64,000 nt of DNA, taken from contig JBBITT010000017.1 of the NCBI GenBank assembly GCA_037440625.1, forward strand, positions 1,767 through 65,766, in the 5' to 3' direction. Of the stretch, positions 24,211 through 60,810 are shown in pieces. The stretch comes from Chloroflexota bacterium (GTDB taxonomy: Bacteria > Chloroflexota > Anaerolineae > UBA4142). The position numbers were made by a program, and so were the translations under genes. Under the pieces are notes generated by a model. That model made no database searches. It saw only the letters and a list, made by a program, of their open reading frames with translations, and was not told the DNA's origin. Position 1 is the first letter of the stretch, and every line of letters starts with the position of its first letter.

Positions 24211-25206
24211 ATGACCACGCTCGTACTCATCTTTGCGACTGCCCTCGTCTTTGCCATAGGCGCAACGCCGATCGCGCGCCGCATTGCTGTGCATACCGGG
24301 ATGATAGACCAACCGAATGCGCGCAAAGTCCACACGACCCCCATTCCCCGTTTGGGCGGCGTGGCGATCTATGGCGCATTTATGCTCGGGCTGATTTTGT
24401 TCGCCGATCGGTTTTACATTCCCCAGTTGATTAGCATCATCGTTGGCGCAACGTGGGTGTCGTTTCTAGGATTGTGGGATGATCGCGTGGGCTTGAATGC
24501 GTGGATCAAACTGTTGGGCCAGGTCTTGGCCGCCGTGTTGCTCATTCTCACCGGCGTTTCGGTGGATTTGGTTCATCAACCTATCGTGGATGCGGCGATT
24601 GCGCTTGTTTGGATTGTGGGCATTACCAACGCGATGAACTTGCTCGATAATATGGATGGCCTCTCCGGCGGCGTGGCTGCCATCGCCTCCGGTTTTTTTC
24701 TGTTGATCGCCTGGCTCAACGGCCAGTATCTGGTGGGCAGTTTGTGTGCAGCACTCTTTGGTGCGTCCATCGGTTTTTTGATTTACAATTTTAACCCCGC
24801 TTCTATTTTTATGGGCGATGCGGGGAGTCTCTTTCTCGGCTTTGTGTTGGCGGCGGTTGGATTGAAATTACGCTTTGTCACGCAACCACTGGCAGAAACC
24901 TGGTTCATTCCGATTCTGGTGCTGGGGCTTCCTATTTTCGATACGACTCTTGTCTTTGTCTCGCGTTTGCGGCGCGGGTTGAATCCGTTGATGCATCCCG
25001 GCAAAGATCACATTTCGCATCGTTTGGTCGAACGCGGGATGACGCGCCGCGAAGCCGTCTTGCTCTTGTATCTCGTGGCGTGTGCCCTCGGCATCATTGC
25101 GATGTTTAGTGTGCGGATCGGGACGTGGCAGGCACAAGGAGTATTTGCGCTGGTCATCCTAGCGGGGCTCGTTGCCTTGTACGAATTTGAATTTCGCCGG
25201 GTGTGA
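24211..25206 (+). CDS. WecA/MraY-family polyprenyl-phosphate N-acetylhexosamine-1-phosphate transferase (initiating enzyme)
   Basis: DQPNARKVHTTPIPRLGG, ITNAMNLLDNMDGL, NFNPASIFMGDAGSLFLGF. Confidence 0.85.
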   Translation: MTTLVLIFATALVFAIGATPIARRIAVHTGMIDQPNARKVHTTPIPRLGGVAIYGAFMLGLILFADRFYIPQLISIIVGATWVSFLGLWDDRVGLNAWIKLLGQVLAAVLLILTGVSVDLVHQPIVDAAIALVWIVGITNAMNLLDNMDGLSGGVAAIASGFFLLIAWLNGQYLVGSLCAALFGASIGFLIYNFNPASIFMGDAGSLFLGFVLAAVGLKLRFVTQPLAETWFIPILVLGLPIFDTTLVFVSRLRRGLNPLMHPGKDHISHRLVERGMTRREAVLLLYLVACALGIIAMFSVRIGTWQAQGVFALVILAGLVALYEFEFRRV

Positions 25207-45690: not shown

Positions 45691-47841
45691 ATGGAGATCC
45701 AAGACCTGATCCGCAAAATTCAATCCTATAATCCCAACGCCGACATTGAACGGATTCGGCGGGCGTACGCTCTTGCCGCGCAAGCACACCAAGGGGTGAT
45801 GCGCTCGACCGGCGATCCGTACATCACCCATTGTCTCGAAGTCGCCAATATTCTGGCGGACCTCAACCTGGATGATGACACGCTGGTTGCCGCGCTCTTG
45901 CACGATGTCCCGGAAGATACCGATGTCTCACTCGAAACGATTCGTCAAGAATTTGGCGACAAGGTCGCAGAATTGGTGGATGGCGTTACAAAACTTTCCG
46001 GCTTGCGTTTGGGGATGGAGCAGACGCAAGCCGAATCTTTGCGCAAGATGTTTATGGCAATGGCGGAGGAAATCCGCGTCGTCATCATCAAACTCGCTGA
46101 TCGGTTGCACAATATGCGCACGCTCTACGCGCGTCCGCCGGACAAGCAACGCAAAATCGCGCGCGAGACGATGGAAATCTTTGCGCCACTCGCGAATCGC
46201 TTGGGGATGTACAACATCCGCCGCGAACTCGAAGACCTCTCGCTCAAGTACCTTGAACCGGACGAGTATCACAAAATCGAAACGCTGCTTGCGGATGACA
46301 AGGACGATAAACAAGCCTACATTCAACAAACGATTGCAATTCTGCGGGAACGCTTGGCGCAAGAGGGGATTCAGCCGATCGAAATCAGTGGGCGTCCAAA
46401 GCACATTTACAGCATCTATAACAAAATGATTCGCAAGGGGCGCGACTTTGATCAGATTTACGATATTCGTGCCATTCGGGTCATTGTAGATTCCGTACGC
46501 GATTGCTACGTGGTGTTGGGCATCGTTCATAGTTTGTGGACGCCCATCCCCGGCGAATTCGACGATTACATCGCCAAGCCCAAAGAAAACTTGTATCAAT
46601 CCTTGCATACGGCGGTCATTGGTCCCGCCGGCAAGCCGGTCGAAATCCAAATTCGCACCGCCCAGATGCACGAGATTGCCGAGTTTGGAATTGCGGCGCA
46701 TTGGCGCTACAAGGAAGCCGGCGCCAAACACGATGCGGCTTTGGAAAGCAAAATCAATTGGTTGCGTCAATTGATGGATTGGCGCAAAGACATTGCCGAT
46801 GCGCGCGTGTTTGTGGATTCGCTCAAGACCGATATTTTCCAAGACCAAGTGTACGTCTTTACGCCCAAAGGTGACATTATCGAATTGCCAGCCGGTGCCA
46901 CGCCGATTGACTTTGCGTACCACGTCCACACGGAGATTGGTCATCGTTGTCGTGGCGCCAAAGTGAACGGCCGCATCGTCCCGCTCGATTATCGCTTGAA
47001 AACCGGCGACCGCGTGGAGATCACGACGGCGAAAAAAGGCGGACCCAGCCGCGATTGGTTGAATCCCGGTTTGAATTTGGTGCATACTGCCCGCGCGCGC
47101 GAAAAGATTCGCTACTATTTCAAACATCAAGCACGTGAACAAGCCATCGCCGAAGGGCGCGCGTTGTTAGAAAAAGAATTGCACAAACTGGGTTGGGATC
47201 AACGCAATTGGGACGAACTCGCCAAATCGTTCAACTATAAAAACACCGATGACTTTTTAGAAGCCATTGGTCACGAGGACTTGTCCATTCAAACCATCAT
47301 CGTCAAGTTGTTGGAAGCCGAACGCGCCAAGTCGGAGACGGAAGAAGCCGGCGCACAACCGATTGCGCCGCGTATCCCGGAAACTTCGGCGACGGTGCAA
47401 GGCGTGGATAACTTGATGGTGCGGGTGGCGCGGTGTTGCAATCCCTTGCCCGGCGATGCCGTGGTGGGCTATATCACGCGCGGGCGGGGGATCGTCATTC
47501 ATCGTCGGAATTGCCGCAACGTGGTGAACTGGGAGGAGGGCGATGAACGCGCGCGTTTGATTGAGATTGATTGGCGGCAAACCGAACAGCAGACGTATCC
47601 GGTGTTGGTGCAAATCAAAGCCTTTGATCGCGCCGGGTTGGTGCACGATATTTCCGGCATCGTTGCCGCCGAAGGCGTGAACATGTCTTCGACCAGTGCG
47701 ACCTCGGGCCGCAAAGATCACATTGCGATGATTATGGCGACCTTGGAAATTTCCAGCGCAGATCAATTGACGCGCATTCTCAACAAGATTGATCATTTGC
47801 CTAATGTCATCGAAGCGCGCCGGGTAACCTCCAGTTCTTAA
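45691..47841 (+). CDS. rel: Bifunctional (p)ppGpp synthetase/hydrolase (RelA/SpoT homologue)
   Basis: HD domain HCLEVANIL...LHDVPEDT; synthetase RPKHIYSIYNKM; TGS and ACT regions. Confidence 0.95.
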   Translation: MEIQDLIRKIQSYNPNADIERIRRAYALAAQAHQGVMRSTGDPYITHCLEVANILADLNLDDDTLVAALLHDVPEDTDVSLETIRQEFGDKVAELVDGVTKLSGLRLGMEQTQAESLRKMFMAMAEEIRVVIIKLADRLHNMRTLYARPPDKQRKIARETMEIFAPLANRLGMYNIRRELEDLSLKYLEPDEYHKIETLLADDKDDKQAYIQQTIAILRERLAQEGIQPIEISGRPKHIYSIYNKMIRKGRDFDQIYDIRAIRVIVDSVRDCYVVLGIVHSLWTPIPGEFDDYIAKPKENLYQSLHTAVIGPAGKPVEIQIRTAQMHEIAEFGIAAHWRYKEAGAKHDAALESKINWLRQLMDWRKDIADARVFVDSLKTDIFQDQVYVFTPKGDIIELPAGATPIDFAYHVHTEIGHRCRGAKVNGRIVPLDYRLKTGDRVEITTAKKGGPSRDWLNPGLNLVHTARAREKIRYYFKHQAREQAIAEGRALLEKELHKLGWDQRNWDELAKSFNYKNTDDFLEAIGHEDLSIQTIIVKLLEAERAKSETEEAGAQPIAPRIPETSATVQGVDNLMVRVARCCNPLPGDAVVGYITRGRGIVIHRRNCRNVVNWEEGDERARLIEIDWRQTEQQTYPVLVQIKAFDRAGLVHDISGIVAAEGVNMSSTSATSGRKDHIAMIMATLEISSADQLTRILNKIDHLPNVIEARRVTSSS

Positions 47842-48071
47842 TCGCGCGCTGCGATTTCAACGATTTTCAAAAAACCCCAGACCAAGCCTACCAATCCCAT
47901 AAAGCCGGCAAAGCATCCCAGTGCCACCAACAACGCCGGCACGCCCCAGATCAACGCAATCAAGCCACCCCCGATGACCAAACCAATCAACGTGCCCCCC
48001 AGAATCAATTCGCGTTCCAAGCGTCCGCGATATGTGCGTGAATCAAACGAGCGTTTCGGCTTTGGCGTCAT
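47838..48071 (-). CDS. Small two-helix membrane protein
   Basis: GAGGAGG-4 nt-ATG; hydrophobic GGTLIGLVIGGGLIALIWGVPALLVALGCFAGFMGLVGLVWGFL; stop overlaps the rel stop by 4 nt. Confidence 0.5.
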   Translation of the reverse strand: MTPKPKRSFDSRTYRGRLERELILGGTLIGLVIGGGLIALIWGVPALLVALGCFAGFMGLVGLVWGFLKIVEIAARD

Positions 48072-48105: not shown

Positions 48106-48134
48106 TTGTCAATTCAATTTTCTTGCGGTAAAAT
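48106..48134 (+). promoter_or_regulatory. Candidate promoter TTGTCA-17-TAAAAT for the GNAT/GT-C operon
   Basis: gaaTTGTCAattcaattttcttgcggTAAAATaacac, 20 nt before GTG 48154. Confidence 0.45.
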
Positions 48135-48153
48135 AACACTACGGAGGAAAGCC

Positions 48154-49170
48154 GTGGCACGCTGGTTAAGCCCTGACGATTTATTTGCCATCAAACGCCT
48201 GCAAACGCGCGGCGTCCAACTTGATTTTGAACGTGCGGTATTGTGGCCCCACAGCGCGCTGCAAGCCGCGCTCTATGCGCACATTCCGATTAGTGCGATT
48301 GGTGCGGAGACAATTGTGTTGTACCCCTCCGCCACTCATCGCGCGAGTGCGGTGGGGTTCTTGCAGTTGCGTAGTCGCCGCGGCAGACCGGAAGCCGATA
48401 TTGTGTATCTTGCGCCCGCCTTGGACAGCGAAGAGGATGCCGTCGCGATTTGGTATCGCTTGCTCGCCGAAGCCGCGCAGGAGATTGGCGCGCAAGGTGT
48501 GCAACGTTTGTTTGCCCAAGTTACCAGTGGCAATAGTGTTGAGCAAGTATTTGCGCAAGCTGGTTTTGGCGCCTATTCGCGCGAAGAAATCTATTGCCTC
48601 CCCAAGTTGCCCGCCGATATGGCGCATCCGTCCCTGTTACGTCGGCAAACGACGCGGGATGGCTGGAATCTGTTGCGGCTCTACACCGAATTGACCCCGC
48701 GCCCGGTCCAGATCGCGGAGGGTATGTTATCGCCAGAAGGACAAGCCGGCAAGATGGGCGATTGGTGGGATCAATCGCGCGAAGCCGGCTTTATCCTCGA
48801 AGTGGAGGGCGAACTCGCCGGCGCGGTGCGCATTCGGCGAGGCAGCGCGGCGTACTGGTTGCGTTTTGGTTTGCATCCGCAAGCGCAAGAACACAGCGAT
48901 CGTTTGTTGCAAGGCGCGTTGGTTTTGCTGCATTCCATGCCGCCTCATCCGATCTATTGCGCCGTGCGCGATTACGAAAGTGGAATGGCGTTGGCGTTGG
49001 AACGCGCTGGCTTTCAACATGTCCAAATGCGCAGTCTGCTCGTCAAACACTTGACGGTGCGCGCCAAAGAGCCGCTTCTCAAACTTGCCCCCGCTCTGGA
49101 GAAACACGCCAAACCCGCGGCGAGTGTCTCGCATCACATTTCGACATTCGTTGATTCGCGTTCTTCGTGA
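48154..49170 (+). CDS. Putative tandem GNAT-fold acetyltransferase
   Basis: GTG after GGAGGA; two acyl-CoA-transferase-like segments (GVQRLFAQVTSGNSVEQVFAQAGF; IYCAVRDYESGMALALERAGF). Confidence 0.4.
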   Translation: MARWLSPDDLFAIKRLQTRGVQLDFERAVLWPHSALQAALYAHIPISAIGAETIVLYPSATHRASAVGFLQLRSRRGRPEADIVYLAPALDSEEDAVAIWYRLLAEAAQEIGAQGVQRLFAQVTSGNSVEQVFAQAGFGAYSREEIYCLPKLPADMAHPSLLRRQTTRDGWNLLRLYTELTPRPVQIAEGMLSPEGQAGKMGDWWDQSREAGFILEVEGELAGAVRIRRGSAAYWLRFGLHPQAQEHSDRLLQGALVLLHSMPPHPIYCAVRDYESGMALALERAGFQHVQMRSLLVKHLTVRAKEPLLKLAPALEKHAKPAASVSHHISTFVDSRSS

Positions 49171-49185
49171 TATAATTCCGCCGCC

Positions 49186-51096
49186 ATGAATCGGCAATCC
49201 ATCCATTCCCCCTTCATCGAACGCCTCGTGCTGGGGGCGATGCTCCTCCTTGCTTTGGCGGTGCGCCTTTATCGGTTGGAGGCGCAAGCCCTTTGGTGGG
49301 ACGAAAGTCTCAGCGTGTATCGTGCGACGCGCGATCTGGGCACCGTTTTATCGAACACGATTCTCATCCAGAATTTGGTTACGGTGGATACGTTGCCCCA
49401 GTTGTATTTTGTGCTCCTCAACGTGTGGGTGCGTGCGACGGGCATTAGCGAATACGCGCTCCGATTTTTCTCCGTGTTTGCCAACGTTGCCACGCTTCCG
49501 CTCATCTACGCGCTGGCGCGCCGATGGTTGAGCAAATCGGCGGCGTGGGTGGCGATGTTGCTGGGCGCGCTCTCGCCATTCTACACGTGGTACGCCCAAG
49601 AAGCACGACCGTATGCGTTGGTACTTTTTTGGAGCACGCTGGCGATTTATGCGTTGACGCGTGCATTGGATTCGCGCTCGCGTGTTTGGCTGATAACCTA
49701 TTTGCTCGCAGCCACGGCATCACTTTACACGCATTACTATTCGCTCTTTCTCTTGCCATTCCATTCGATTCTAATTGCAATGGCGTGGAGACCGAATATC
49801 AAGCGCGCGTGGATAGGGCTTCCCACGTTGCCGCTTCTCGGCGCGATTTTTTTGTTGCCGCAAATTCTTGCCAGCATGGCGGGCAACGTCAATTGGGGTC
49901 CCATCTTTGTCCCGCTCCCAACCATCTTGCTCGATCTGCTCAACTCGTTCAGCGTGGGCGTTACCGCTGATTTGAACGCGGTGTGGTGGATTGATGGGGC
50001 ATTACTGGTAGTGTTCGCCATCGGTCTAAGTCTCAAACCTCAAATCTCAAATCCCAAATTTGAGATTTGGAATTTGCGATTTGGGATTTTGGCTTTCGCC
50101 TATTTGCTGGTGCCGGTACTTGGAGTTTTTGTCGCGTCATTCATTCGCCCGTTGTATCAAAACTCGCGGTACCTCATTTCGATTAGCCCGGCGTTTTATC
50201 TGGGTGTGGCGGCGGGTATCGTTGTCTTGCGGCGGCGTTGGCAATGGATGGCGATCTCGGTAATTGCCGTGTACCTGCTTGGCGCGATCATCTCGCTGAA
50301 CAATTGGTATTTCAATCCACAGTTCGGCAAAGACGATCATCGCGGCTGGGCGGCGTCTCTGCGCGAGCGCGTGCTGCCCGGCGATTTTCTCATTCTCGAT
50401 TCGCCGCACACCGAAGAGCTGTATCGCTACTATGCTGACGATCTCGTGCCGATGATTACGCTACCGATTTTGCGCGCGGATGGTCAGCCCTCGCCCCAAG
50501 CCGATTTGGACGCCATCCGCCAAGCGTATCGCCAGCACGCGCGCGTGTGGTTTTTGGCTTTGCATGTCCCGTTCGATGATCCGTACCAACGCATCGAAAC
50601 ATTGTTGCATCAAGAAGGAGTGTTGATTGACCAAGCCCAATTTGCTGGCACGAGTACCGCGATCACCCTAGCGTTGTTTATGCCGACAATGCCGGTCGCA
50701 CAGCCCGGCGATGTTCCGTACCCACTCGATCTTGGATTTGCCGGCAATTTGCGTTTGCGCGGCTATGATGCGCCCACATCGTTGCGTACCAATCAACCCA
50801 ACTTCATCAAACTCTTTTGGCAACTGGACGAACCGGTGGGCGAAGATTATGCGGTATCGTTGCGCGTGGTGGATGACGCCGGTCAAGTCGTGATGCAACA
50901 CGATGCCGTGTTGTTGGGCAATCGTGCCGGCACATCCACATGGATGCCCAAGCAAATCCTGGTCGAGACGCGCGCCATCGTGTTGACGCATCCGATCGTT
51001 GCCGGAAAATATGCTTTGCAAGTGGTGCCTTATCACCTTGCGACCGGTAATGCGTTGGGCGAAGTGTTCACGCTGGCTGAGATTGAGGTACCGTGA
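49186..51096 (+). CDS. GT39/ArnT-type (GT-C fold) polyprenyl-phosphate-sugar-dependent glycosyltransferase, paralogue 1
   Basis: First-loop WWDESLSVY (D-E motif), about 11 TM helices, C-terminal beta-rich domain shared with 51868 and 57411. Confidence 0.75.
   Translation: MNRQSIHSPFIERLVLGAMLLLALAVRLYRLEAQALWWDESLSVYRATRDLGTVLSNTILIQNLVTVDTLPQLYFVLLNVWVRATGISEYALRFFSVFANVATLPLIYALARRWLSKSAAWVAMLLGALSPFYTWYAQEARPYALVLFWSTLAIYALTRALDSRSRVWLITYLLAATASLYTHYYSLFLLPFHSILIAMAWRPNIKRAWIGLPTLPLLGAIFLLPQILASMAGNVNWGPIFVPLPTILLDLLNSFSVGVTADLNAVWWIDGALLVVFAIGLSLKPQISNPKFEIWNLRFGILAFAYLLVPVLGVFVASFIRPLYQNSRYLISISPAFYLGVAAGIVVLRRRWQWMAISVIAVYLLGAIISLNNWYFNPQFGKDDHRGWAASLRERVLPGDFLILDSPHTEELYRYYADDLVPMITLPILRADGQPSPQADLDAIRQAYRQHARVWFLALHVPFDDPYQRIETLLHQEGVLIDQAQFAGTSTAITLALFMPTMPVAQPGDVPYPLDLGFAGNLRLRGYDAPTSLRTNQPNFIKLFWQLDEPVGEDYAVSLRVVDDAGQVVMQHDAVLLGNRAGTSTWMPKQILVETRAIVLTHPIVAGKYALQVVPYHLATGNALGEVFTLAEIEVP
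50032..50094. repeat. Inverted arrays of heptanucleotide repeats (CTCAAAT x4 / ATTTGAG-type x4-5) inside the coding sequence
   Basis: ctcaaac ctcaaat ctcaaat cccaaat | ttgagat ttggaat ttgcgat ttgggat tttggct; 63 nt, in frame (KPQISNPKFEIWNLRFGILA). Confidence 0.75.
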
Positions 51097-51866
51097 CCCG
51101 ACCCGAAGAAATGTTGATGCACCCGGAGGAATACCGGGTGATGTTCCAAGTCGAGAATGGGTATTGGTGGTATCGTGGTTTGCGCAACTTGCTCAAGCAA
51201 TTATTGCCACGTTACCTTCCGCGGGATGCCAACGCTCTCATCCTCGATGCCGGGTGTGGGACGGGCGCCAACCTGCAATTGTTGCAAACGTGGGGGCGCG
51301 TGATTGGGATTGATATCGCGCGTGAGGCACTCGATTTTTGTCGTGTGCGCGGCGTGCCTAGCGATCGCCTGCTTGCCGCGTCCGTAACCGCGCTCCCGTT
51401 CGCGGCGCAATCGTTTGACGTGGTCGTTTCGTTCGATGTCATTTGCAATATTCCGGATGATGTGGATGCGTTCGAACAGGTGGTGCGCATTTTGAAACCG
51501 GGCGGCTATTTCATCGTCCAGTTACCAGCGTATCAATGGTTGTGGAGCATGCACGATGTTGCCGTGGGGCATCAACGGCGGTACTCGTCGCGCGAGACAC
51601 GCGCCAAACTGGAACGCGCCGGCTTGCACGTCGTTCGTGTGTTGCACACCAATGCGTTGTTGCTTCCGTTGGTGGCAATCGAACGTTTACTGCGCCGATA
51701 TGCGATGGAGCATCACGCCCCAGTGGTTTCCGATCTGCAATTGAATGTGCCCGCGTGGCTCAATCAACTGCTTTCGATCATTTATCAAATCGAGATCGCG
51801 TTTGCCGCGCGCGTGGATTTTCCGATTGGACTATCCCTGATTGCGGTGGCGCAAAAACAAGTGTGA
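51093..51866 (+). CDS. Class I SAM-dependent methyltransferase
   Basis: LILDAGCGTGANLQLL, ILKPGGYFIV; GTGA overlap with the upstream gene. Confidence 0.75.
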   Translation: MTRPEEMLMHPEEYRVMFQVENGYWWYRGLRNLLKQLLPRYLPRDANALILDAGCGTGANLQLLQTWGRVIGIDIAREALDFCRVRGVPSDRLLAASVTALPFAAQSFDVVVSFDVICNIPDDVDAFEQVVRILKPGGYFIVQLPAYQWLWSMHDVAVGHQRRYSSRETRAKLERAGLHVVRVLHTNALLLPLVAIERLLRRYAMEHHAPVVSDLQLNVPAWLNQLLSIIYQIEIAFAARVDFPIGLSLIAVAQKQV

Positions 51867-51867
51867 A

Positions 51868-53772
51868 ATGAAAAAGTTTTGGCTTTTAGGATTGATTCTG
51901 CTTGCCTTTGTCGTGCGCATGTATCGGCTGGATGCCTTTGCCCTCCGCGGCGATGAATCGTTCACGGTGCTGTTTGTTCAGCGAACCTGGGAAGGATTAT
52001 GGCGCGGGATTAGCACCATCGAACCGAATCCGCCGTTGATGTATCTCGCGTTGCGGGTCTGGGTGGCGATTGCCGGCACAAGCGAATTTGTTACGCGGCA
52101 CTTTTCCGTGTTCTTTGGCATGCTGGGCGTGCCACTAATCTATCGGCTGGCGCGCGAAATGTTCAAATCACAGACGATTGCACTGACCGCCGCCGCGCTC
52201 ATCGCGATCAATCCATATCAGATTTGGCATTCGCAAGATGTGCGCAACTATACGATGTGGCCCACGCTCAGTTTGCTGGCGTTGGTTTTCTTTTGGCAAT
52301 GGTGGCGAAAGGAGACTACCGACTACCGACTACCGACTACCGACTACCGACTAGCGACTAACAACTACCGACTAACGACTAACAACTACCGACTAATTCT
52401 TTATGTGGCCGCCACACTCGCCAGTCTCTACACCCATTATTACGACGTATTCATCCTTGCCGCACTCAATCTGTTTGTGCTCACCTTTGCCAGCGTGGCG
52501 CGGCGATGGCAAACTTTGGTGCGATGGATTGGTGCGCAAGCGGCGTTGGTCTTGCTCTACGCGCCCTGGGTGCTCGTTGGAACGAATCGGATCACGACGT
52601 ACAATGAAGCAAGTGCGGAGCAAAGCGTCTCTTTGCTCGATGTGTTCAGCCGCACGCTTGCCGCGTTCATCGTCAGCGAAACGGTCCCGCGCGATGTGTG
52701 GTCAATGGTGTGGTTGCCACTCTCGCTTGCCCTCGTCGCGATTCTGGTCTATCTCGCCAAACGAAATCACGAACGTGCGCTCTTTCTCGCGCTTTACATT
52801 GCGGTGCCGACGTTGGCGCTGTACATCATTTCGATGGGGCGCCCCTTGTTTTTGGAACGGTATCTCAACGGCATCGCGCCGGCGTATTATCTGGTGTTTG
52901 CGGTTGGTATCGCCGCGCTGATTCAGAGGCGCACCTCACTCGCCAAGGTTGGGTTGATCGTTGCCGCGCTGTTTTTTATCGGCACATCGGTGTATGCCAC
53001 GTGGAATGCCAACTTTGATCCGGCGTTTGCCAAAGCCCCCCTATGGCGCGAAATGGCGCAAACGATTATCGCCCAAATGCGACCGGGCGATCTGGTCGTT
53101 CAGAATTTTACCGAGGTGTCGCCGTACTATTATCTCAATCCGTACGTACCCGTGTTTACGCTCCCGAAAGATTACTGGTTCACGCCGGCGGACGAACCAC
53201 TCTTGCGCCAATGGACTACCGAATATCGGCGGATCTGGTTTATTCCAGCACAACCGAATCAGTGGGACCCGGATCAACAGGTGGAAAAATTCTTGGCGCA
53301 CCATGCGGAACGGGTTTTCGAACGGCGGATGGGAACGTTACGCGTGCAACTGTATCTGACCCCGCGCGAGTTTGCTGCCAAAATCAATCCGCTGAATGCG
53401 CGCGTGGGTAATGCGACATTGACCGGTTATCACATTGAGCGCGGCAACCCGGTGCGCGTGGTGTTGTATTGGCGCGCGGAGCAACCGATCACCCAAGCGT
53501 ATAGCGTCTTTGTGCATCTGGCTGATGCGCATAACCAGATCGTTGCGCAACAGGATCGTGCGCCGGCGTTTGGTTGGTATCCCACCACCGAGTGGCAACC
53601 CGGCGAATCCATTGTGGATGTGTACGAATTGACGGTGGATGCGCCGGGCACATTCACGCTCATCGTTGGAATGTACGATCCAAACACGCTTGAACGTGTG
53701 CCGGCGTTTGATGCAAACGGTACGCGATTCACGGATGATCGCATCGTCCTGACGCAAATCACAATTCCATAA
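51868..53772 (+). CDS. GT39/ArnT-type GT-C glycosyltransferase, paralogue 2
   Basis: LRGDESFTV first loop, EPNPPLMY, C-terminal domain LTGYHIE...VVLYWRAEQP...YPTTEWQPGE. Confidence 0.75.
   Translation: MKKFWLLGLILLAFVVRMYRLDAFALRGDESFTVLFVQRTWEGLWRGISTIEPNPPLMYLALRVWVAIAGTSEFVTRHFSVFFGMLGVPLIYRLAREMFKSQTIALTAAALIAINPYQIWHSQDVRNYTMWPTLSLLALVFFWQWWRKETTDYRLPTTDYRLATNNYRLTTNNYRLILYVAATLASLYTHYYDVFILAALNLFVLTFASVARRWQTLVRWIGAQAALVLLYAPWVLVGTNRITTYNEASAEQSVSLLDVFSRTLAAFIVSETVPRDVWSMVWLPLSLALVAILVYLAKRNHERALFLALYIAVPTLALYIISMGRPLFLERYLNGIAPAYYLVFAVGIAALIQRRTSLAKVGLIVAALFFIGTSVYATWNANFDPAFAKAPLWREMAQTIIAQMRPGDLVVQNFTEVSPYYYLNPYVPVFTLPKDYWFTPADEPLLRQWTTEYRRIWFIPAQPNQWDPDQQVEKFLAHHAERVFERRMGTLRVQLYLTPREFAAKINPLNARVGNATLTGYHIERGNPVRVVLYWRAEQPITQAYSVFVHLADAHNQIVAQQDRAPAFGWYPTTEWQPGESIVDVYELTVDAPGTFTLIVGMYDPNTLERVPAFDANGTRFTDDRIVLTQITIP
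52314..52397. repeat. Heptanucleotide tandem repeat, 12 units (GACTACC x5 perfect plus 7 variants) within the coding sequence
   Basis: gactacc x5, gactagc, gactaac, aactacc, gactaac, gactaac, aactacc, gactaat; encodes TTDYRLPTTDYRLATNNYRLTTNNYRLI. Confidence 0.9.
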
Positions 53773-55988
53773 TGTCCAAATCTCAAACCTCAACCCCCCA
53801 ATCCCAAATCATCAGTGATTTTGCTGCGCTGGTGTTCATCGCCGCGCTAGTTTTGCTTTTCTTTTGGCGCATCCTCACGCCGCGTTTGGAAGACCGCGCC
53901 GTCTTTCCGCCCGGCGATTTTACCGATCAGTTTTGGATGTTCCGTGTCTATGAAGCGCGCGCGTTTGCGCAAGGACGCTTGCCACTGTGGTCAGACAATT
54001 TCAACAGTGGGCATCCCTTCCTCGCTGATGTGCAGAGCGCGCTTTTTTATCCGATCGGTTTGGTGTGGACACTCCTTGTCGTTGCAACGCGCGGCGCAGA
54101 TTTTACATTGTTCGATTTAGAAGTTGAAGCGATTTTGCATTTCATACTTGCCGGCGCGTTCACGTATTTGTTTGCCAAACGCTTGCTCGGCTCGCGCATC
54201 CCTGCGTTGGTGAGCGCGCTCACTTTTACGTTCGGCGGTTATCTCACCTCCTATCCGCCGCAACAACTCGCCATTCTGGAAACGGCAACGTGGCTACCGC
54301 TAATTTTATTGTTGTTGGATTACGCCCTCGAACGCGGCTGGCGTTATTACCTTGGGGCAGGGGTCGCGCTGGGCGTTGCCGCGTTGGCGGGGCATCCGCA
54401 GACATTGATGTTTGTAGGTTATGCGAGCGTCATTTATTTTGTGTGGCGCGCCCGACAAAACTCAAATTCTCCATCTGCCAGGAATTGGATTTTGAGATTT
54501 GGACTTGATTTATCACTTGTTCTTTTCATCGCCGCCGGCATTGCCGCCGCGCAATGGCTCCCCAGTCTCGAATATCAAATGGTCTCAACGCGTGCCGCCC
54601 TTTCGTGGAAAGATGCCGCCAGCGGTTTCCCCACACTCGATCCTCTGCAAATGATTTTGCCGGGCTATGCTAGCGCGTTTCAATCGCCGTTGTATATCGG
54701 CATCTTGCCGCTGTGGTTTGCGCTCTTGGCTTTGTTCATTCAGCGTTCGCGCGAGAAAATATTTTGGCTTGGACTCGCGCTCGGCGCGCTCATTGTTTCA
54801 TTTGGTTTCTACGTGTTTGGGTACGCCTTGTTTTATCTCTTGGTGCCCGGCTTTGCGCTGTTTCGCGGTCAAGAACGACTTGCCTTCATCATTAGTTTTT
54901 CACTGGCGATCCTCGCCGGGTACGGTTTGCGCGATTTGATGCAAGCATCGTTCGATGGAAAACGGGCGCGCCGGCTGTGGGCATTGCTACCGGCCGGCAT
55001 CGTCGTCAGCGTGCTGATGCTGTTCACGATGTACATCGCCGCGCGCGAGTACCAAACCGGCCGATTATTCTTTCTCACGGATCGCGCCGGGCTGATGGCG
55101 TTATTGTTTGGGCTGGCAAGTGTGGTCGCGCTGGTGCTGATTCAACGCCGGCAAGGGGCTTTGGGACTCGCGCTTGCGCTAATCGTCTTTGATCTGTTTA
55201 GCATCAATAACGCCCTGTATAACGCTGACCCCACGCCACGATTCCCGGCGACGCCCATCATCGAAACAATTCAAAACGATGCCGGGATTTTCCGGGTGGT
55301 GGATGAAGGGACGCAACCCGGGCATTTTGGCATTGCGTATAATCTCGAAGAGATCGGCGGGATTAGCCCGCTGCGCATCGCCTACTATAATCAATTGCTG
55401 GACGAGTTGCCCGCAGAAAATTTGTGGCGCCTGCTGAATGTGCGGTACGTGCTGACCCAGCGCCCCAGTTTGGCGCACGCCGATTTGGTTACCCAAGACG
55501 GCGAGGCGCGCTTGTTTCGTTTGCAAACCCAAATGCCACGCGCGTGGCTAGTCGGCACAGCGCAACTGGCGGACGATGCGAACGCGCTTGCCGCGATGCA
55601 AAATGATTCCTTCGATCCGCGCGCCATCGTTTATCTCGCCGAGGCGCCGGCATTTTTGCCGGTGCCCAATGCTGCGTTCACCCCGGTTACCTTTGAACAA
55701 CGCGACCCGGAACATTTTACGCTGACCTTCAACACGCCCACTGATTCGATTTTGGTGTTGAGCCACACGTATTATCCCGGTTGGCGCGCGACGGTTGACG
55801 GCGACGCCGCGCCGATTCTGCGCGCTAACGTTGCGTTGCAAGCGATTGCCGTGCGCGCCGGCGCACATCGCGTTGAAATGAGTTTTGAGCCGTGGTCGGT
55901 GAAGGTGGGGATTGCGATTTCTATTTTGACCATCGGGGTGCTCGTGGTTGGGACCGTCTTGAAAGGTAGGAAGGCAAATGCAACTTGA
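53772..55988 (+). CDS. YfhO-like polytopic membrane glycosyltransferase (GT-C)
   Basis: GDFTDQFWMFRVYEARAFAQGRLPLWSDNFNSGHPFLADVQSALFYP resembles the YfhO N-terminal signature; TAATG overlap with the upstream gene. Confidence 0.55.
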   Translation: MSKSQTSTPQSQIISDFAALVFIAALVLLFFWRILTPRLEDRAVFPPGDFTDQFWMFRVYEARAFAQGRLPLWSDNFNSGHPFLADVQSALFYPIGLVWTLLVVATRGADFTLFDLEVEAILHFILAGAFTYLFAKRLLGSRIPALVSALTFTFGGYLTSYPPQQLAILETATWLPLILLLLDYALERGWRYYLGAGVALGVAALAGHPQTLMFVGYASVIYFVWRARQNSNSPSARNWILRFGLDLSLVLFIAAGIAAAQWLPSLEYQMVSTRAALSWKDAASGFPTLDPLQMILPGYASAFQSPLYIGILPLWFALLALFIQRSREKIFWLGLALGALIVSFGFYVFGYALFYLLVPGFALFRGQERLAFIISFSLAILAGYGLRDLMQASFDGKRARRLWALLPAGIVVSVLMLFTMYIAAREYQTGRLFFLTDRAGLMALLFGLASVVALVLIQRRQGALGLALALIVFDLFSINNALYNADPTPRFPATPIIETIQNDAGIFRVVDEGTQPGHFGIAYNLEEIGGISPLRIAYYNQLLDELPAENLWRLLNVRYVLTQRPSLAHADLVTQDGEARLFRLQTQMPRAWLVGTAQLADDANALAAMQNDSFDPRAIVYLAEAPAFLPVPNAAFTPVTFEQRDPEHFTLTFNTPTDSILVLSHTYYPGWRATVDGDAAPILRANVALQAIAVRAGAHRVEMSFEPWSVKVGIAISILTIGVLVVGTVLKGRKANAT
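53775..53809. repeat. Direct heptamer array (CCAAAT family), half element at the 5' end of the CDS
   Basis: tccaaat ctcaaac ctcaacc ccccaat cccaaat. Confidence 0.55.
54461..54505. repeat. Degenerate inverted heptamer element (CTCAAAT ... TTGAGAT TTGGACT) inside the CDS
   Basis: ctcaaat tctccat ctgccag gaattgg att ttgagat ttggact; encodes SNSPSARNWILRFGL. Confidence 0.45.
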
Positions 55989-57414
55989 TCGAACTGATTC
56001 ACGCGTGCGTAATGGGTTCATCGTCCTCGTTGCCATGCTGCTTGCCATTGCCGGCAGTGCCACCATCGCGTTCGTTCATCCACTTGTTCCGTTCGCGGTC
56101 ATCATTGGCATGGTCATCGGCGCGATCATTCTATCGAACATCGAGTTTGGGATGTACGCCGTGATGGCCATCGCGGTGCTATTGCCGTTCGCCGCGCTCC
56201 CGCTCAATATCGGTTTCAATCCAACCTTTCTCGATCTTGCGCTTGTCGCGGTGTACGCGATGTGGTTTACACGCGTGATGACGCGTCAAGCCGAACATGG
56301 TTTTGTCGCCACGGTATTAGGTTTGCCTATCCTGACGTTTCTCATTCTCGCTATCTTTTCATTCATCGCCGGCACCGCGCACGCACCGATTACCACGCAG
56401 GTCTTGCGCCAGTTCGCCGAAGTGCTGGCGGCGATTGCGTTCTTCTTCGTGATCGTGAACACCGTGCAGACGCGTGCAATGCTTAGACGCTATGTGACCG
56501 CGCTCATCCTTGCCGGCTTTGTCTCCGCGTTCATCGGGATCATTCTCTATGTGCTTCCCCGTGACCTGACGATCATGTTGCTCTCGTTGTTGCGCGTGTT
56601 CAAGTATCCTTCGGGTGAAGGGGTTTTGCGTTTCATCGAAGATGATCCCAACAATCCGATGCGTGCGATCTCGACCTCGATTGATCCGAACGTGTTGGGC
56701 GGTTTGATGATTTTGGTTACCGCGCTCGCCGCGCCGCAACTCTTTGCCGAGAAACCGTTGTTGCCGCGCAAACTTGTGCTCGTCATGGTTGGCACGATGT
56801 TTGTGTGTTTGGTGCTGACGTTTTCACGTGGAGCCCTGTTGGGCTTGGTGCTGGCATTGACCGTGATCGCCACCGTACGCTATCGTCCGATGATCGCCTT
56901 GATTTTGCTGGGCGCGATCGTGTTCTTGTTCTTGCCGTTCACGCAAGAATATCTTGGGCATCTTTTGGATGCGTTCACGCTGAGCGACCGAGCGACCCAA
57001 ATGCGACTGGGCGAATACAAAGATGCGCTCACGCTGATTTCGCGTTATCCATTTTTTGGCGTGGGCTTTGGCGGCTCACCCGATATTGACACCTACCTTG
57101 GTGTATCCAGTGTCTATTTGTTGATGGCAGAAGAAATGGGCTTGATTGGCTTGAGCGTGTTTCTCATCATTATGGGCACCTTCTTTTATCAAGCGCTCCA
57201 AGCGTGGTTTGCGCGGATTGCCCAAGACAAATTTCTCGCGCCGATTTTGTTGGGAATCGCCGGGGCGTTGCTCGGCGCGATGATCGGCGGTTTGGTGGAT
57301 CACTATTTCTTCAATCTCCGATTTCCGCACTCGGTCGTCTTGTTTTGGTTGTTCGTGGGGCTGGGGATGGTGACGATTCGATTGAGCAACCCTAACGCTG
57401 ACGAACTCCAATGA
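55978..57414 (+). CDS. O-antigen ligase/polymerase-family (Wzy_C) membrane protein
   Basis: About 11 TM helices, TFSRGALLGLVLAL motif, periplasmic loop region. Confidence 0.7.
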   Translation: MQLDRTDSRVRNGFIVLVAMLLAIAGSATIAFVHPLVPFAVIIGMVIGAIILSNIEFGMYAVMAIAVLLPFAALPLNIGFNPTFLDLALVAVYAMWFTRVMTRQAEHGFVATVLGLPILTFLILAIFSFIAGTAHAPITTQVLRQFAEVLAAIAFFFVIVNTVQTRAMLRRYVTALILAGFVSAFIGIILYVLPRDLTIMLLSLLRVFKYPSGEGVLRFIEDDPNNPMRAISTSIDPNVLGGLMILVTALAAPQLFAEKPLLPRKLVLVMVGTMFVCLVLTFSRGALLGLVLALTVIATVRYRPMIALILLGAIVFLFLPFTQEYLGHLLDAFTLSDRATQMRLGEYKDALTLISRYPFFGVGFGGSPDIDTYLGVSSVYLLMAEEMGLIGLSVFLIIMGTFFYQALQAWFARIAQDKFLAPILLGIAGALLGAMIGGLVDHYFFNLRFPHSVVLFWLFVGLGMVTIRLSNPNADELQ

Positions 57415-59477
57415 AGATTCCGCAGCGCGTTTGGGTCCCTGCAATTCTCCTCGCCGCGTTCGCCGTGCGAATGTTTCGGCTGGGCGCGGCAAGTTTGTGG
57501 TACGACGAGACGGTGAGCGTTTACCTTGCGCAACAGAATCTCGTCGAACTCACCTGCCACACCGCTGGCGATATTCATCCTCCGCTGTATTATTATCTCT
57601 TGCACTTTTGGGGCAACCTTGCCGGCTGGTCCGAATTGGCGATGGCGTTCGTCTCGCTCGGCTGCGATCTTTTGCTGATTGCCCTCGTTTATCGTGTGGC
57701 GCGCGCGTGGCTCGACAAACAGGTTGCCACCCTTGCCGCGTTTCTGGTAGCGATCTCGCCGTATCACGTGTGGTACTCGCAAGAAGTGCGAATGTACACG
57801 CTCGGCGCGCTGCTGGGACTGGCATCGGTTTATTTTCTTGTGCGGTTGATTAGTCGTCAGGCGTCAGGCACCACTCGCCAGTCCATTTTCTCGCGCGACT
57901 TGATCGCTTATGCGATTATCAGCGCGCTGGGTTTGTATACGCTCTACTATTTTGCTTTTCTGATTGTCTTTGAAAATCTTGTCGCCTTTGTTTGGCTTAT
58001 TCGCCATTCAAGATCACGGCTTGATTTGCGATTGGGAAATTGGAAGTTGGGATTGGTAACTTGGGTTTTCTCCCAACTTGCCATCCTTGCACTCTATCTG
58101 CCCTGGGCGCCCATCGCCTTCCGCCAAGCCACCGATCCCCCCGTTCCGCCGTGGCGTTCCTTCACCGCGCTCCCGCAAGTTCTGCTCGAATCGTTTTCCG
58201 CGCTCACGCTGGGACAATCCATTGACCCGCTGATAGCATCGCCGGTGCTATTCATCGTTGTGGTCGTGATGCTCATCGCATGGTGGCGGAACCGCTTACT
58301 GCCGACTACCTACCGCCGACTGCCTACTGTGTTGTTCCTACTTGGTTATACCTTGATCCCACTTGCGCTCATCTATACGCTTTCGCTTTGGAAACCGCTC
58401 TACCATGTCCGCTATGTTTTCATCTATTCGCCGGCGTTTTACATCCTGCTCGCAATGGGTTTAGAGAAGATTCGCCATTCGTCATTTGCCGTTCGCCGTT
58501 TGCGTTTTGCGTTTTACGCTTTACTCTTTATTCTGCTCACCGCCTCTGGCTTTTCGATCTACAATTTTTGGTTCAACCCTCGTTATGCCAAAGACGATTT
58601 GCGCGGCGCGGTGAATTATCTTGCGGAACGTTGGCGACCCGGCGATGCGATTCTCCTCAACGCCGGCTACACCTACACCGCGTTCGTGTACTATTATGAT
58701 CAACCGATCGCGTGGCGCGGACGATTGACTGCGTACACCGCGCAGAACGCCCAGGAGGGTGCAATCGTTTTGCAAACCGGCTCGATCGGCGGCGCACCGA
58801 ACCTGGGCTGGGGCGATCCGCGTTCCGATTTTTACGCGACGACCGCTGACGAAACGCGTGCCGCGCTCGATCGAGTCTTTGCCGCGCACCCGCGCGTGTG
58901 GATGCTCCGCTTGTACGATACGGTGGTTGACCCGGCCGGTATCATTCGCGATTATCTTGCCACACGTGGGCGCCTCATTGACGATCAAGGATTCGCTGGC
59001 GAATCCTACGCGCGTGTGCAAGGTTATCTCACCTCGCCTTTGCCAACGACGACCTTGCCCTCCACGCTCACACGCCGCGATGTGTTGCTGGGTAATCGAA
59101 TTGGGTTGCTGGGCTTTGAGCCGGCATCGTTGACAGTACACGCCGGGCAAACGATTGACGTGAACGTGTACTGGCAAGCCAAAGAACAAACGAATGTGGA
59201 CAGCCATCTTTTCATCGGGGTGTACGCAGAAGATGGTGCGCTGGTTGCTTCAACCGAAGAAATTCCCATCGGCAATGCGCTAGGCACATCACGTTGGACT
59301 CCCGGCGAAATTTTGCGCCACCCCATTCGTATGCGTCTCCCGGTGCATCTGGCACCGGGTCTTTACAACTTGCGCGTCACACTATACAATCCGCTCACCA
59401 ACGAACCCTTGAGCGCGCCGCCAAATGTTGCGGACGCAAGTCAAATTATGCTGACCCAGATTCGAATCGAAAAATGA
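57411..59477 (+). CDS. GT39/ArnT-type GT-C glycosyltransferase, paralogue 3
   Basis: LWYDETVSVY first loop, GDIHPPLYYYLLHFW, C-terminal LLGFEPA...VNVYWQAKEQ domain; ATGA overlap. Confidence 0.75.
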   Translation: MKIPQRVWVPAILLAAFAVRMFRLGAASLWYDETVSVYLAQQNLVELTCHTAGDIHPPLYYYLLHFWGNLAGWSELAMAFVSLGCDLLLIALVYRVARAWLDKQVATLAAFLVAISPYHVWYSQEVRMYTLGALLGLASVYFLVRLISRQASGTTRQSIFSRDLIAYAIISALGLYTLYYFAFLIVFENLVAFVWLIRHSRSRLDLRLGNWKLGLVTWVFSQLAILALYLPWAPIAFRQATDPPVPPWRSFTALPQVLLESFSALTLGQSIDPLIASPVLFIVVVVMLIAWWRNRLLPTTYRRLPTVLFLLGYTLIPLALIYTLSLWKPLYHVRYVFIYSPAFYILLAMGLEKIRHSSFAVRRLRFAFYALLFILLTASGFSIYNFWFNPRYAKDDLRGAVNYLAERWRPGDAILLNAGYTYTAFVYYYDQPIAWRGRLTAYTAQNAQEGAIVLQTGSIGGAPNLGWGDPRSDFYATTADETRAALDRVFAAHPRVWMLRLYDTVVDPAGIIRDYLATRGRLIDDQGFAGESYARVQGYLTSPLPTTTLPSTLTRRDVLLGNRIGLLGFEPASLTVHAGQTIDVNVYWQAKEQTNVDSHLFIGVYAEDGALVASTEEIPIGNALGTSRWTPGEILRHPIRMRLPVHLAPGLYNLRVTLYNPLTNEPLSAPPNVADASQIMLTQIRIEK
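58020..58070. repeat. Heptamer array (TTGNGAT family, inverted orientation only) inside the CDS
   Basis: ttgcgat tgggaaa ttggaag ttgggat tggtaac ttgggtt; shares atttgcgatt-ggga with 50073..50086. Confidence 0.5.
58297..58331. repeat. Degenerate GACTACC-family heptamer tract inside the CDS
   Basis: tactgcc gactacc taccgcc gactgcc tactgtg; encodes LLPTTYRRLPTV. Confidence 0.5.
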
Positions 59478-59493
59478 AATTCGCGGAGGAACT

Positions 59494-60810
59494 ATGAGCA
59501 CCCAACCCCAAGCCGATCTTGCACGCATCATCGAATCCGCGCGCCGGCTCGGCATCGAAATGGATGAAGCCGATGCCTTGCAATGGCTCACCGCGATGGC
59601 AGCCGCGTCAAGCGGCGGCGATATTGTAATGGACACGCGCAGTGGTGTGTTTGGTCATAAAGTAACGATGCTCGATTTTAGCGATGAGCAACTTGCGCAC
59701 TATCGCGCGATTGGTCGCTTGGTAGAGTTTGCCGATGTGCCCGGCGTCGTGGAAACCGCGCTCGCCTTGTCCGGCTCTGCCGCGCAATCCAAAATTCAAA
59801 CCTATCCCGGCGATTGCGATTATTTCGAACGCATCAACATTATCGCCGCAACCCGCGAAAAGGCGTGCGAAATTCTTGCCAAGATTATGCGTGAGAAAGC
59901 GTTGAGCACGCTCAAAGGGGCAACGTATCAACTCATCGAAGTGAAATTTGGTTCGTATCCGTACGAGGTGGTGAAAGGCGAACAGAGAATCAAAGCCGGG
60001 TCGCCGGTGTCGTGGGCGCCCGCCGAAATTCAAGCGGGTCAGATCGAAGCGTTCACGCCCGATGGAAAACCGGTGACGATTCGTTGGGACGATGTGGCGC
60101 AAAACCCGGGTTGGTGCAAACTCGATTGGGTCATTGCCGATCCGGCGCGCGGGCAACTGGCCAACGCCTCGAATATGCTCGATGTAACCTGGGAGGCACC
60201 GGACGGAACGATTACGCCGCTCGATGGTTATCTCGATCCATACTTTCAAGAAGTCTATCTCGATGCAACCTCCGTCCCGATTTTTTCCAAGTTAGCCAAA
60301 CACGTTTCGGCGGACGCGCTGGACGAGTACGTGGCGCAGTTGCAAAAGGAAATCAAAAAGTATTTGCAAAAAGAGCATCTCAACTATGGCAAGGTGGCTA
60401 AACGGATGTACAACATTTTTCGTTTGACCGGGCGTTACCAAGAAGCCGCGTTCGTGCGTGAATTGTTCGATGAGCCCGCCACGGTGTTGTACCAAGTTTG
60501 GTCGCTCATCCGCACGATTGACGATTGTTGCCAAGCCGGCTCGAGCATTTCCAGAGAAACGATGCTCGCGCAAACGGATCAACTCATCGTTCACGTGGTA
60601 GATGTGTTGGAAGGTGATCGGGAAGCCGAAATCGTCAAACGCCTTTTGCGTTTGCGCGATAGTTTGACACGCCAAGTGGCAGGGCAAGCATTGGATGCCC
60701 AAGCCGAAGCTGCCCGCGCCGAGGTGATCAACATCGTCAACAATTTTTTCTACGCCAAGTTGACTGCCTTGCCAACGATCAAAGAATATCTCGAAACGAT
60801 GGGGCAATAA
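59494..60810 (+). CDS. Hypothetical protein with a nucleotidyltransferase-type GS...DxD motif
   Basis: LALSGSAAQSKIQTYPGDCDYFERINI (G-S, 11 residues, D-x-D); later KLDWVIAD; helical C-terminal half; GGAGGA RBS 16 nt after the upstream stop. Confidence 0.35.
   Translation: MSTQPQADLARIIESARRLGIEMDEADALQWLTAMAAASSGGDIVMDTRSGVFGHKVTMLDFSDEQLAHYRAIGRLVEFADVPGVVETALALSGSAAQSKIQTYPGDCDYFERINIIAATREKACEILAKIMREKALSTLKGATYQLIEVKFGSYPYEVVKGEQRIKAGSPVSWAPAEIQAGQIEAFTPDGKPVTIRWDDVAQNPGWCKLDWVIADPARGQLANASNMLDVTWEAPDGTITPLDGYLDPYFQEVYLDATSVPIFSKLAKHVSADALDEYVAQLQKEIKKYLQKEHLNYGKVAKRMYNIFRLTGRYQEAAFVRELFDEPATVLYQVWSLIRTIDDCCQAGSSISRETMLAQTDQLIVHVVDVLEGDREAEIVKRLLRLRDSLTRQVAGQALDAQAEAARAEVINIVNNFFYAKLTALPTIKEYLETMGQ

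Follow-up and report, generated by a model that had tools for sequence, protein, structure and literature searches.

A conserved cluster of GT-C-type glycosyltransferase genes in an Anaerolineae genome as a candidate extracytoplasmic glycosylation module

The locus and its conserved six-gene core

We analyzed a 64-kb stretch of DNA from a Chloroflexota bacterium of the class Anaerolineae (64,000 nucleotides of contig JBBITT010000017.1; the whole stretch is hereafter called the window), which contains a series of closely packed genes, named g1 to g8, several of them predicted to encode membrane-embedded glycosyltransferases of the GT-C type. The eight open reading frames (ORFs) lie on the + strand between 48154 and 60810, and neighboring frames overlap by 1–11 nt or stand 1–16 nt apart. 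Gene order and junctions are exactly as described in an earlier note made from the sequence alone, with no gap above 16 nt and with g3 starting at a GTGA (51093), g5 at a TAATG (53770–53774), and g7 at an ATGA (57411). The genes are as follows.

48154–49170, + strand: g1, GTG start preceded by a GGAGGA ribosome-binding site; 338 aa, cytoplasmic, divergent and possibly GNAT-like (weak evidence)
49186–51096, + strand: g2, predicted GT-C glycosyltransferase, ArnT/PMT/STT3-like; PMT_2
51093–51866, + strand: g3, predicted class I S-adenosylmethionine (SAM) methyltransferase; Methyltransf_11
51868–53772, + strand: g4, GT-C paralogue with the RGDESFT motif and a (GACTACC)n insert; ATG start, with an upstream TTG (51841) possible
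53772–55988, + strand: g5, predicted YfhO-like GT-C glycosyltransferase; YfhO and PMT_2
55978–57414, + strand: g6, Wzy_C-family protein with 12 transmembrane (TM) segments; polymerase-, ligase- or O-oligosaccharyltransferase-like
57411–59477, + strand: g7, GT-C paralogue with the WYDETVS motif; PMT_2
59494–60810, + strand: g8, predicted nucleotidyltransferase-fold protein, 438 aa; adjoins the core without belonging to it

Pfam matches were judged against the gathering scores and NCBIfam equivalogs against the curated cutoffs. All three paralogues matched the PMT_2 model (43.1, 34.4, and 38.3 bits for g2, g4, and g7, respectively, above the cutoff of 26.1), and g4 additionally matched the PMT model PF02366. 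Each protein carries an Asp-Glu (D-E) motif (WWDESLS, RGDESFT, and WYDETVS) in the first extracytoplasmic loop, after TM1, and this D39-E40 pair was invariant across the three paralogues and 28 homologues. With g2 as the alignment reference, full-length identity amounted to 30–31%, the C-terminal beta domain included. The AlphaFold2 model of g2, the one paralogue that was modeled, had a predicted local distance difference test score (pLDDT) of 85 and a predicted TM-score (pTM) of 0.81, and consisted of about 11 TM helices followed by a periplasmic alpha/beta domain and a beta-sandwich. This model has the GT-C_A fold, with a Foldseek probability of 1.0 to AglB, STT3, ArnT, ALG9/12, Pmt4, and Emb; the best E-values were those of the oligosaccharyltransferases STT3, AglB, and PglB, and the TM-score to ArnT (5ezm), normalized to the target, was 0.56. 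The identity of g2 to solved structures was 12–14%, and a search of the g2 sequence against the Protein Data Bank (PDB) chains returned nothing significant. The C-terminal beta-sandwich weakly resembled Wzt-C (2r5o), a glycan-binding domain, and CARDB (3idu) in the Foldseek comparison (E about 3e-3). These matches, motifs, alignment, and model bear out the claim of the earlier note that g2, g4, and g7 are paralogous GT39/ArnT-type enzymes with a first-loop D-E motif and a shared C-terminal beta-rich domain.

Each paralogue has its own set of orthologues at 50–66% identity, against 31% between the paralogues, so the triplication is ancient and has been maintained rather than being a product of decay. 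The orthologues of g7 were 47–72% identical in the close clade and 94% identical in locus L004. The possibility, raised by the earlier note, that the paralogues are pseudogenized duplicates with broken catalytic loops is contradicted by three intact frames with an invariant D-E pair. In the next clade out (L013–L016, L019, and L028; P0338–P0360), the g2 orthologues were longer (~970–1010 aa) and had an extra C-terminal beta domain resembling that of g4; some of them matched PF10633 (NPCBM-associated) or PF11028.

Pfam matches to g3, g5, and g6 likewise agree with their identification in the earlier note as a SAM methyltransferase, a YfhO-like GT-C enzyme, and a Wzy/WaaL-like protein. The g3 protein matched Methyltransf_11 (E=6e-23) and related models, and has two C-terminal hydrophobic segments (residues 178–196 and 235–253); its ORF family was found in 13 loci, and in the close-clade loci g3 is placed between the orthologues of g2 and g4. 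The g5 protein matched YfhO (83.4 bits; cutoff 28.5), with its best stretch at C-terminal residues 638–717, as well as PMT_2. PF09586 was carried by all g5 homologues listed, and the first-loop residues D41, D49, and D52 were invariant in 20 homologues. Against the NCBIfam models of PgfM1 and PgfM2, g5 scored 28 and 21 bits, with cutoffs of 1400 and 1500, and the matches covered the C-terminal 70 residues only. The g6 protein, with twelve hydrophobic segments, matched Wzy_C at 55.4 bits (cutoff 31.7) and stayed below the NCBIfam cutoffs for IctB (53.9 bits against 366) and FtsW (23.3 bits against 337).

A profile of g5 homologues was used to collect 79 loci from species-representative genomes, nearly all of them metagenome-assembled genomes of Anaerolineae, Caldilineae, and other Chloroflexota, and the loci were compared by tblastn with all proteins of the window and by clustering of the locus ORFs. 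The closest named contig was DAOUAL010000048 (Anaerolineae bacterium, H63_652), with 92–99% protein identity. The order g2-g3-g4-g5-g6, usually followed by g7, was kept in about 15 loci in which the identity of g5 was at least 47%, while the pair of g5 and g6 was kept in 42 loci, with g5 identity down to 31%. By gene order, then, the conserved unit is the six-gene core g2–g7, and the YfhO-like and Wzy_C pair is its ancient nucleus, spread across Anaerolineae and Caldilineae. What is shown across the clade is a set of four intact GT-C transferases, a 12-TM Wzy_C protein, and a membrane-anchored methyltransferase in the same order. The "eight-gene operon" of the earlier note thus stands with respect to the tight packing, including that of the five polytopic enzymes (four GT-C and one Wzy_C protein) with the methyltransferase in one unit, and falls as a functional unit of eight: g1 was present in 6 of the 79 loci, and g8 stood beside unrelated genes in three contigs and is preceded by a promoter-like site of its own.

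Several genes were found inserted between the core genes in relatives, encoding DUF5996, LiaF-like, metallophosphatase, and alanine racemase proteins, DNA methylases, and an AbiEii toxin-antitoxin pair; no glycosyltransferase or flippase was among them. The AbiEii toxin and its small partner lie between g6 and g7 in the P0014 contigs, and N6/N4 and D12 DNA methylases follow g7 and g5, respectively (L007 15640–16503; L033 12021–12851).

In distant lineages, g5-g6 is preceded by a GDP-mannose 4,6-dehydratase (446 bits; cutoff 415) and a second sugar-nucleotide short-chain dehydrogenase/reductase (SDR), and also by a rhamnosyltransferase-like GT2 and a GT4 gene, and the context of the pair there is therefore one of polysaccharide synthesis. 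In genomes of the Phototrophicaceae/Aggregatilineales type (L058, L064, L069, L072, L074, L076, L077, L082, and others), the pair follows genes for the dehydratase, the SDR, TatD, GT2, and GT4, and inspection by eye placed PpiC-, two FHA-domain-, and penicillin-binding-protein-like genes after it.

Proposed function of the cluster and competing explanations

We consider it reasonably probable that the cluster is an extracytoplasmic glycosylation module, which would assemble or decorate an envelope glycan on the outer face of the cytoplasmic membrane. In this scheme, a lipid-linked glycan, derived from a Wzx/WecA-type locus at 7–28 kb of the window or from elsewhere, would be flipped to the outer face, where g6 would polymerize or ligate it. 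The GT-C enzymes g2, g4, g5, and g7 would attach, extend, or decorate the glycan on an envelope acceptor, which may be a wall glycopolymer or a surface protein, with polyprenyl-phosphate-linked sugars as donors, the synthase and flippase for these being encoded outside the window. The beta-sandwich domains could bind the growing glycan, and g3 may methylate a sugar or a lipid-linked intermediate at the cytoplasmic face.

Several points weigh against this proposal. The sequence reveals neither the acceptor nor the donor. The polyprenyl-phosphate-monosaccharide route is assumed, with no donor synthase or GtrA found in the window, and no ligase of the LytR-CpsA-Psr family was seen there. The beta-sandwich matches Wzt-C and CARDB only weakly. 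Further, all of the NCBIfam equivalogs (ArnT-like, Rv1635c-type, PgfM1/2, and IctB) scored far below their cutoffs, among them the Agl23 model TIGR03663 (38–42 bits against 126), and no specific activity can therefore be transferred to the cluster members.

The donor question was pursued within the window and in the related loci. The earlier note had found no polyprenyl-phosphate-sugar synthase or small flippase in the operon, and this observation extends to the whole window: no GT2 gene of the GtrB/CsbB/ArnC type was detected, the GT2 genes present (at 8568, 10632, and 11530) all being exopolysaccharide- or rhamnosyltransferase-like, and no unannotated ORF of 70–260 aa with at least three hydrophobic segments, the heuristic used for a GtrA-type flippase, was found. 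In the related loci, no GtrB-type synthase was seen among the scanned inserted genes and the commonest neighbor families, a scan that left most other ORFs uncovered. From the absence in the operon the earlier note had concluded that the donor-producing half is missing or novel, a conclusion that we do not share. In characterized systems, unlinked donor genes are normal; the Lactococcus lactis flippase CflA, for example, is encoded at a separate locus and serves three systems (PMC9574508). As synthase and flippase may be unlinked and shared in known systems, their absence here does not imply a novel donor. A supplier of lipid-linked glycans could be the Wzx-type locus at 7–28 kb, which contains a MOP flippase gene (7076), a WecA-like gene (24151), GT2 and GT4 genes, and a gene for a Wzy_C-TPR protein (20439).

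Two genes of this region were also recorded for their domain composition. The frame at 20439–24209 encodes a 1256-aa protein in which a Wzy_C-like membrane domain (29.3 bits, just under the gathering score) is joined to a long C-terminal TPR array. The frame at 25203–28028 encodes a 941-aa UDP-glucose/GDP-mannose dehydrogenase with an intein between the central and C-terminal domains, recognized by matches to Intein_splicing and LAGLIDADG_3.

The cluster belongs to the multi-component GT-C systems of glycosylation and glycan assembly, and is of a known kind with an uncharacterized architecture: a Wzy_C protein and a methyltransferase accompany four GT-C enzymes, the donor arm is unlinked, and the phylum has a little-known envelope. 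One close comparison is with the three-component Gtr-type systems, such as CsbB/GtcA/YfhO of Bacillus and Listeria, CsdAB/CflA of Lactococcus, and GtrABV of Shigella phages (PMC5836110, PMC8035078, PMC9574508). They share with the present cluster a YfhO-family or ArnT-like enzyme of the GT-C type whose first outer loop is acidic and whose target, an envelope polymer, lies outside the membrane; their flippase may be unlinked and shared. They have, however, one GT-C enzyme where the cluster has four together with a Wzy_C protein and a methyltransferase, and csbB-yfhO and csdA-csdB form adjacent pairs, whereas no GT-A synthase gene is adjacent here; the host in our case is, moreover, a Chloroflexota bacterium with uncharacterized envelope polymers. 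A second comparison is offered by the system for side chains of the lactococcal and streptococcal rhamnose polysaccharide, composed of the flippase WpsG, the polymerase WpsI, and the GT-C attaching enzyme WpsJ (PMC9574508). In both cases, a polymerase-type polytopic protein is accompanied by a GT-C enzyme, which in the Wps system moves a lipid-linked glycan onto a different wall polymer. For the g5-g6 pair, this system is a good analogue. The likeness does not extend to a demonstrated orthology of sequence, and the cluster lacks the initiating GT-A of the WpsA/B type, a Wzx flippase, and a Wzz-like protein corresponding to WpsH.

ArnT (GT83) and PMT (GT39) share with g2, g4, and g7 the PMT_2 domain, the D-E pair in the first loop, and, as modeled for g2, the GT-C_A fold, and differ from them in that the cluster paralogues end in an additional beta-sandwich and lack MIR domains; as far as we know, a lipid A acceptor is not expected in this phylum. 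In mycobacteria and corynebacteria, the GT-C lines EmbA-C, AftA-D, MptA-C, and Rv1635c build arabinogalactan, lipomannan, and lipoarabinomannan. In those lines, several paralogues of the GT-C type, each equipped with periplasmic domains that bind carbohydrate, elongate a single polymer outside the membrane, and they use decaprenyl-phosphate-sugar donors that are made elsewhere, by products of unlinked genes. The Emb structures matched the g2 model, although less well than did ArnT and the oligosaccharyltransferases, and the Rv1635c-type mannosyltransferase model NF052499 gave 31–44 bits here against a cutoff of 900; to our knowledge, a mycolata-type wall is not expected in this organism.

A possible, if doubtful, alternative is that the GT-C enzymes move whole oligo- or polysaccharides en bloc from undecaprenyl-(di)phosphate carriers of a Wzx pathway, in the manner of WpsJ and of oligosaccharyltransferases, with no GtrB/GtrA arm involved. 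Such a transfer would account for the lack of a gene of the GtrB type, and it is consistent with the complete Wzx-type locus in the window, with the best fold E-values of g2, which are those of oligosaccharyltransferases, and with the precedent of WpsG, WpsI, and WpsJ, which transfer lipid-linked oligosaccharides from a Wzx pathway (PMC9574508). The two loci, however, are separated by 20 kb in which genes of sugar catabolism and housekeeping lie, and four different GT-C enzymes exceed the need of a single en-bloc transfer.

We think it unlikely that the cluster is a protein O-glycosylation machine, in which the PMT_2 paralogues would modify secreted or S-layer proteins, as the protein O-mannosyltransferases of actinobacteria or eukaryotes do, and g6 would be an O-oligosaccharyltransferase of the PglL/WsaB type. 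The Wzy_C family does include O-oligosaccharyltransferases, g4 matches PF02366, the g2 model matches Pmt4 and gives its best E-values with STT3, AglB, and PglB, and g5 shows weak YfhO-family matches to the streptococcal PgfM1 and PgfM2. On the other hand, the latter matches lie far below the cutoffs and are limited to the C-terminal end noted above, the MIR domains of PMT are lacking, with an alpha/beta domain and a beta-sandwich at the C-terminus, the cluster encodes no candidate acceptor protein, and the context in the distant lineages is polysaccharide-like. Neither this explanation nor en-bloc transfer is separable by sequence from the module proposed above. A chance juxtaposition of all eight genes is hardly credible, for although g8, and less so g1, is linked to the rest only in close relatives and unrelated genes are inserted between core genes in some of them, it is refuted for g2–g7 by synteny (the order in about 15 loci at 47–77% protein identity, and g5-g6 in 42) and opposed by the overlapping start and stop codons, and it stands for g8 only.

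An extracytoplasmic module for an envelope glycan would be of wider interest, as Anaerolineae are abundant in sediments, sludge, and groundwater, while their cell envelope is almost uncharacterized. The six-gene core and the older YfhO-like and Wzy_C pair may serve as handles for the major surface glycopolymer of the class and for its assembly route.

Heptanucleotide tandem arrays in the GT-C genes

The window was searched for tandem repeats with Tandem Repeats Finder (TRF). At a score of at least 40, all tandem repeats of the 64 kb lay inside g2, g4, g5, and g7 and had a period of 7 or 14 only, and the period-7 arrays were confined to g2, g4, and g7. The arrays are as follows.

50031–50089, + strand: TCTCAAA x4 and ATTTGGG x4.6, in g2, encoding loop residues 282–302; TRF
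52314–52395, + strand: (GACTACC) x11.7, in g4, encoding the TTDYRL... insert; the strongest array, TRF score 122
57855–57869: heptanucleotide array, in g7
58297–58327, + strand: 14-mer containing GACTACC, x2.2, in g7; TRF
58470–58515, + strand: period-7/14 arrays of ATTCGCC and TTTGCGT, in g7; TRF

No period-7 array arose in 50 simulated windows. Two-copy rows of period 14 occurred at 0.22 per simulated window, which is near chance, and the two-copy period-14 repeats in g5 (55778) and g7 (58297) were down-weighted for this reason. Across 82 loci, period 7 was by far the commonest repeat class, with 123 rows, followed by 64 rows of period 14, and the repeat density per 10 kb was 2.7 in GT-C ORFs and 0.8 in Wzy_C genes, compared with 1.2 in the other ORFs and 4.8 between genes. 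The arrays clustered in hotspots at residues 236–265 of g5 (19 loci), 286–331 of g2, 156–176 and 338–390 of g4, and 153–211 and 298–363 of g7; the two hot loops are probably cytoplasmic, judging from the order of helices in the g2 model. Orthologues in dozens of genomes had arrays in the same loops, with unit sequences that differed between genomes. Between the window and the 94%-identical L004, the tract in g4 differed in length by exactly three units (21 nt), with the reading frame kept.

These arrays, the most unusual element of the locus, are either heptamer microsatellites spread over the genome and retained only in loops that can accommodate insertions of 7 aa, as a mutational curiosity shaping membrane-protein loops, or slipped-strand switches, as a phase-variation device. 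A comparable example of the microsatellite case would be the heptamers of the short tandemly repeated repetitive (STRR) sequences of cyanobacteria. Because 7 is not a multiple of 3, the gain or loss of one or two units would switch a gene, and arrays acting as contingency tracts would toggle single transferases by slipped-strand mispairing and make the surface glycan combinatorially variable; we rate this as quite improbable. If it were true, a free-living Chloroflexota population would carry a variable glycan, for instance as a defence against phages, and the in-frame arrays of consensus assemblies would represent ON states. A search of the literature available to us found nothing on heptanucleotide repeats or STRR sequences in Chloroflexi, or on GT39 clusters in Anaerolineae.

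The adjoining genes g1 and g8, promoters, and neighboring features

The g1 gene was described in the earlier note as encoding a tandem-GNAT (Gcn5-related N-acetyltransferase) protein. The g1 protein itself had no Pfam or NCBIfam match, its sequence gave nothing significant against PDB chains, and no GxG motif for acetyl-CoA was visible by eye in either half. Its family comprises 915 representatives at 50% clustering; Acetyltransf_1 was matched by 3 of 38 sampled homologues (best E=5e-7), and the family profile matched RimI, a GNAT, at residues 211–273 in the second half (E=0.006) and other GNATs in both halves (E about 0.2). These weak remote signals are the support for a tandem GNAT, and a duplicated, degenerate GNAT fold is plausible. 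A hidden Markov model of the family located g1 in five loci upstream of g2 and in one on the opposite strand after g8. By this distribution, g1 is an accessory gene, joined to the cluster only in the nearest subclade.

The g1 gene is preceded by a sigma-70-type promoter candidate, and a second promoter-like site lies near g8.

48106–48134, + strand: TTGTCA-N17-TAAAAT; the TTGCGG stretch preceding the -10 box is conserved
59362–59390, + strand: TTTACA-17-TACAAT, inside the 3' end of g7, 100 nt upstream of g8; consensus scan only, 10/12 matches

The first site matches the consensus at only 10 of 12 positions, and the region contains many such sites (18, where 11.5 ± 3.9 were expected), so that the scan alone is not significant. 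However, the pattern TTGTCA-N11-TTGCGGTARAAT was invariant upstream of g1 in six loci (the window and five more), in which the remaining flanks do not align; it was unique in the window and did not arise in 100 shuffles, and among 82 fetched loci it was restricted to the front of g1. Phylogenetic footprinting thus indicates that the g1 promoter, as predicted in the earlier note, is real. We propose that, in the nearest subclade, g1 brings this promoter and would be co-transcribed with the cluster. A scan of 45–64 kb with Rfam revealed no riboswitch or leader.

The protein encoded by g8 had been regarded as an orphan, yet it has more than 6000 homologues, the best 120 clusters of which were 72–100% identical, and its conservation exceeded that of every glycosylation gene in the same genome pairs. 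The NTase (nucleotidyltransferase)-type motif reported for it, in contrast, is well founded: G94-S95 and D107-x-D109 were invariant in 30 homologues, and the model of g8 (pLDDT 74.5, falling below 50 in the motif loop) matched Mg662 of Megavirus chilensis, a "new nucleotidyl transferase" (4xul, 4ams, and 4amq), with E=4e-6 and TM-scores of 0.43–0.53. The model also matched predicted proteins of giant viruses and virophages, the best at E=2.5e-13, while g8 had no Pfam match and its sequence no significant match among PDB chains. Its position after g7 is limited to the closest relatives (L004, L021, and the P0014 contigs), and in three contigs (L001–L003) the gene occurs elsewhere, at 73–85% identity and in unrelated contexts: beside glyQS, dnaG, and rpoD; beside a glycoside hydrolase family 4 (GH4) gene and three tandem-GNAT genes; and beside genes for DegV, PNP, and ferritin. 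Sequence and fold comparisons thus indicate that g8 is a separately conserved NTase-fold gene which abuts the cluster, and the varying contexts suggest that its family is an uncharacterized housekeeping nucleotidyltransferase of Anaerolineae. With this, two distractions are removed from the locus, the "orphan" being a conserved, housekeeping-like nucleotidyltransferase and the "missing donor" being no anomaly.

In L002 (6127–8986, - strand), three consecutive tandem-GNAT genes (313–323 aa, with two Acetyltransf_1 domains each) lie beside the g8 homologue. A link between g1 and g8 by way of these genes was considered and dropped, as the profile of the g1 family finds none of the three at E<1e-3. 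PADLOC returned no defense-system match for g1 or g8.

Downstream of g8 lie a ferritin gene and a DinB-family gene, and the prediction of intrinsic terminators gave none on the + strand from g8 to the ferritin gene. Upstream, the cluster is flanked by a RelA/SpoT gene (45691–47841, + strand). A 77-aa ORF on the - strand (47838–48071), divergent from g1 and abutting the RelA/SpoT stop codon, encodes two hydrophobic helices; it had no Pfam match, and its start region is conserved in L004.

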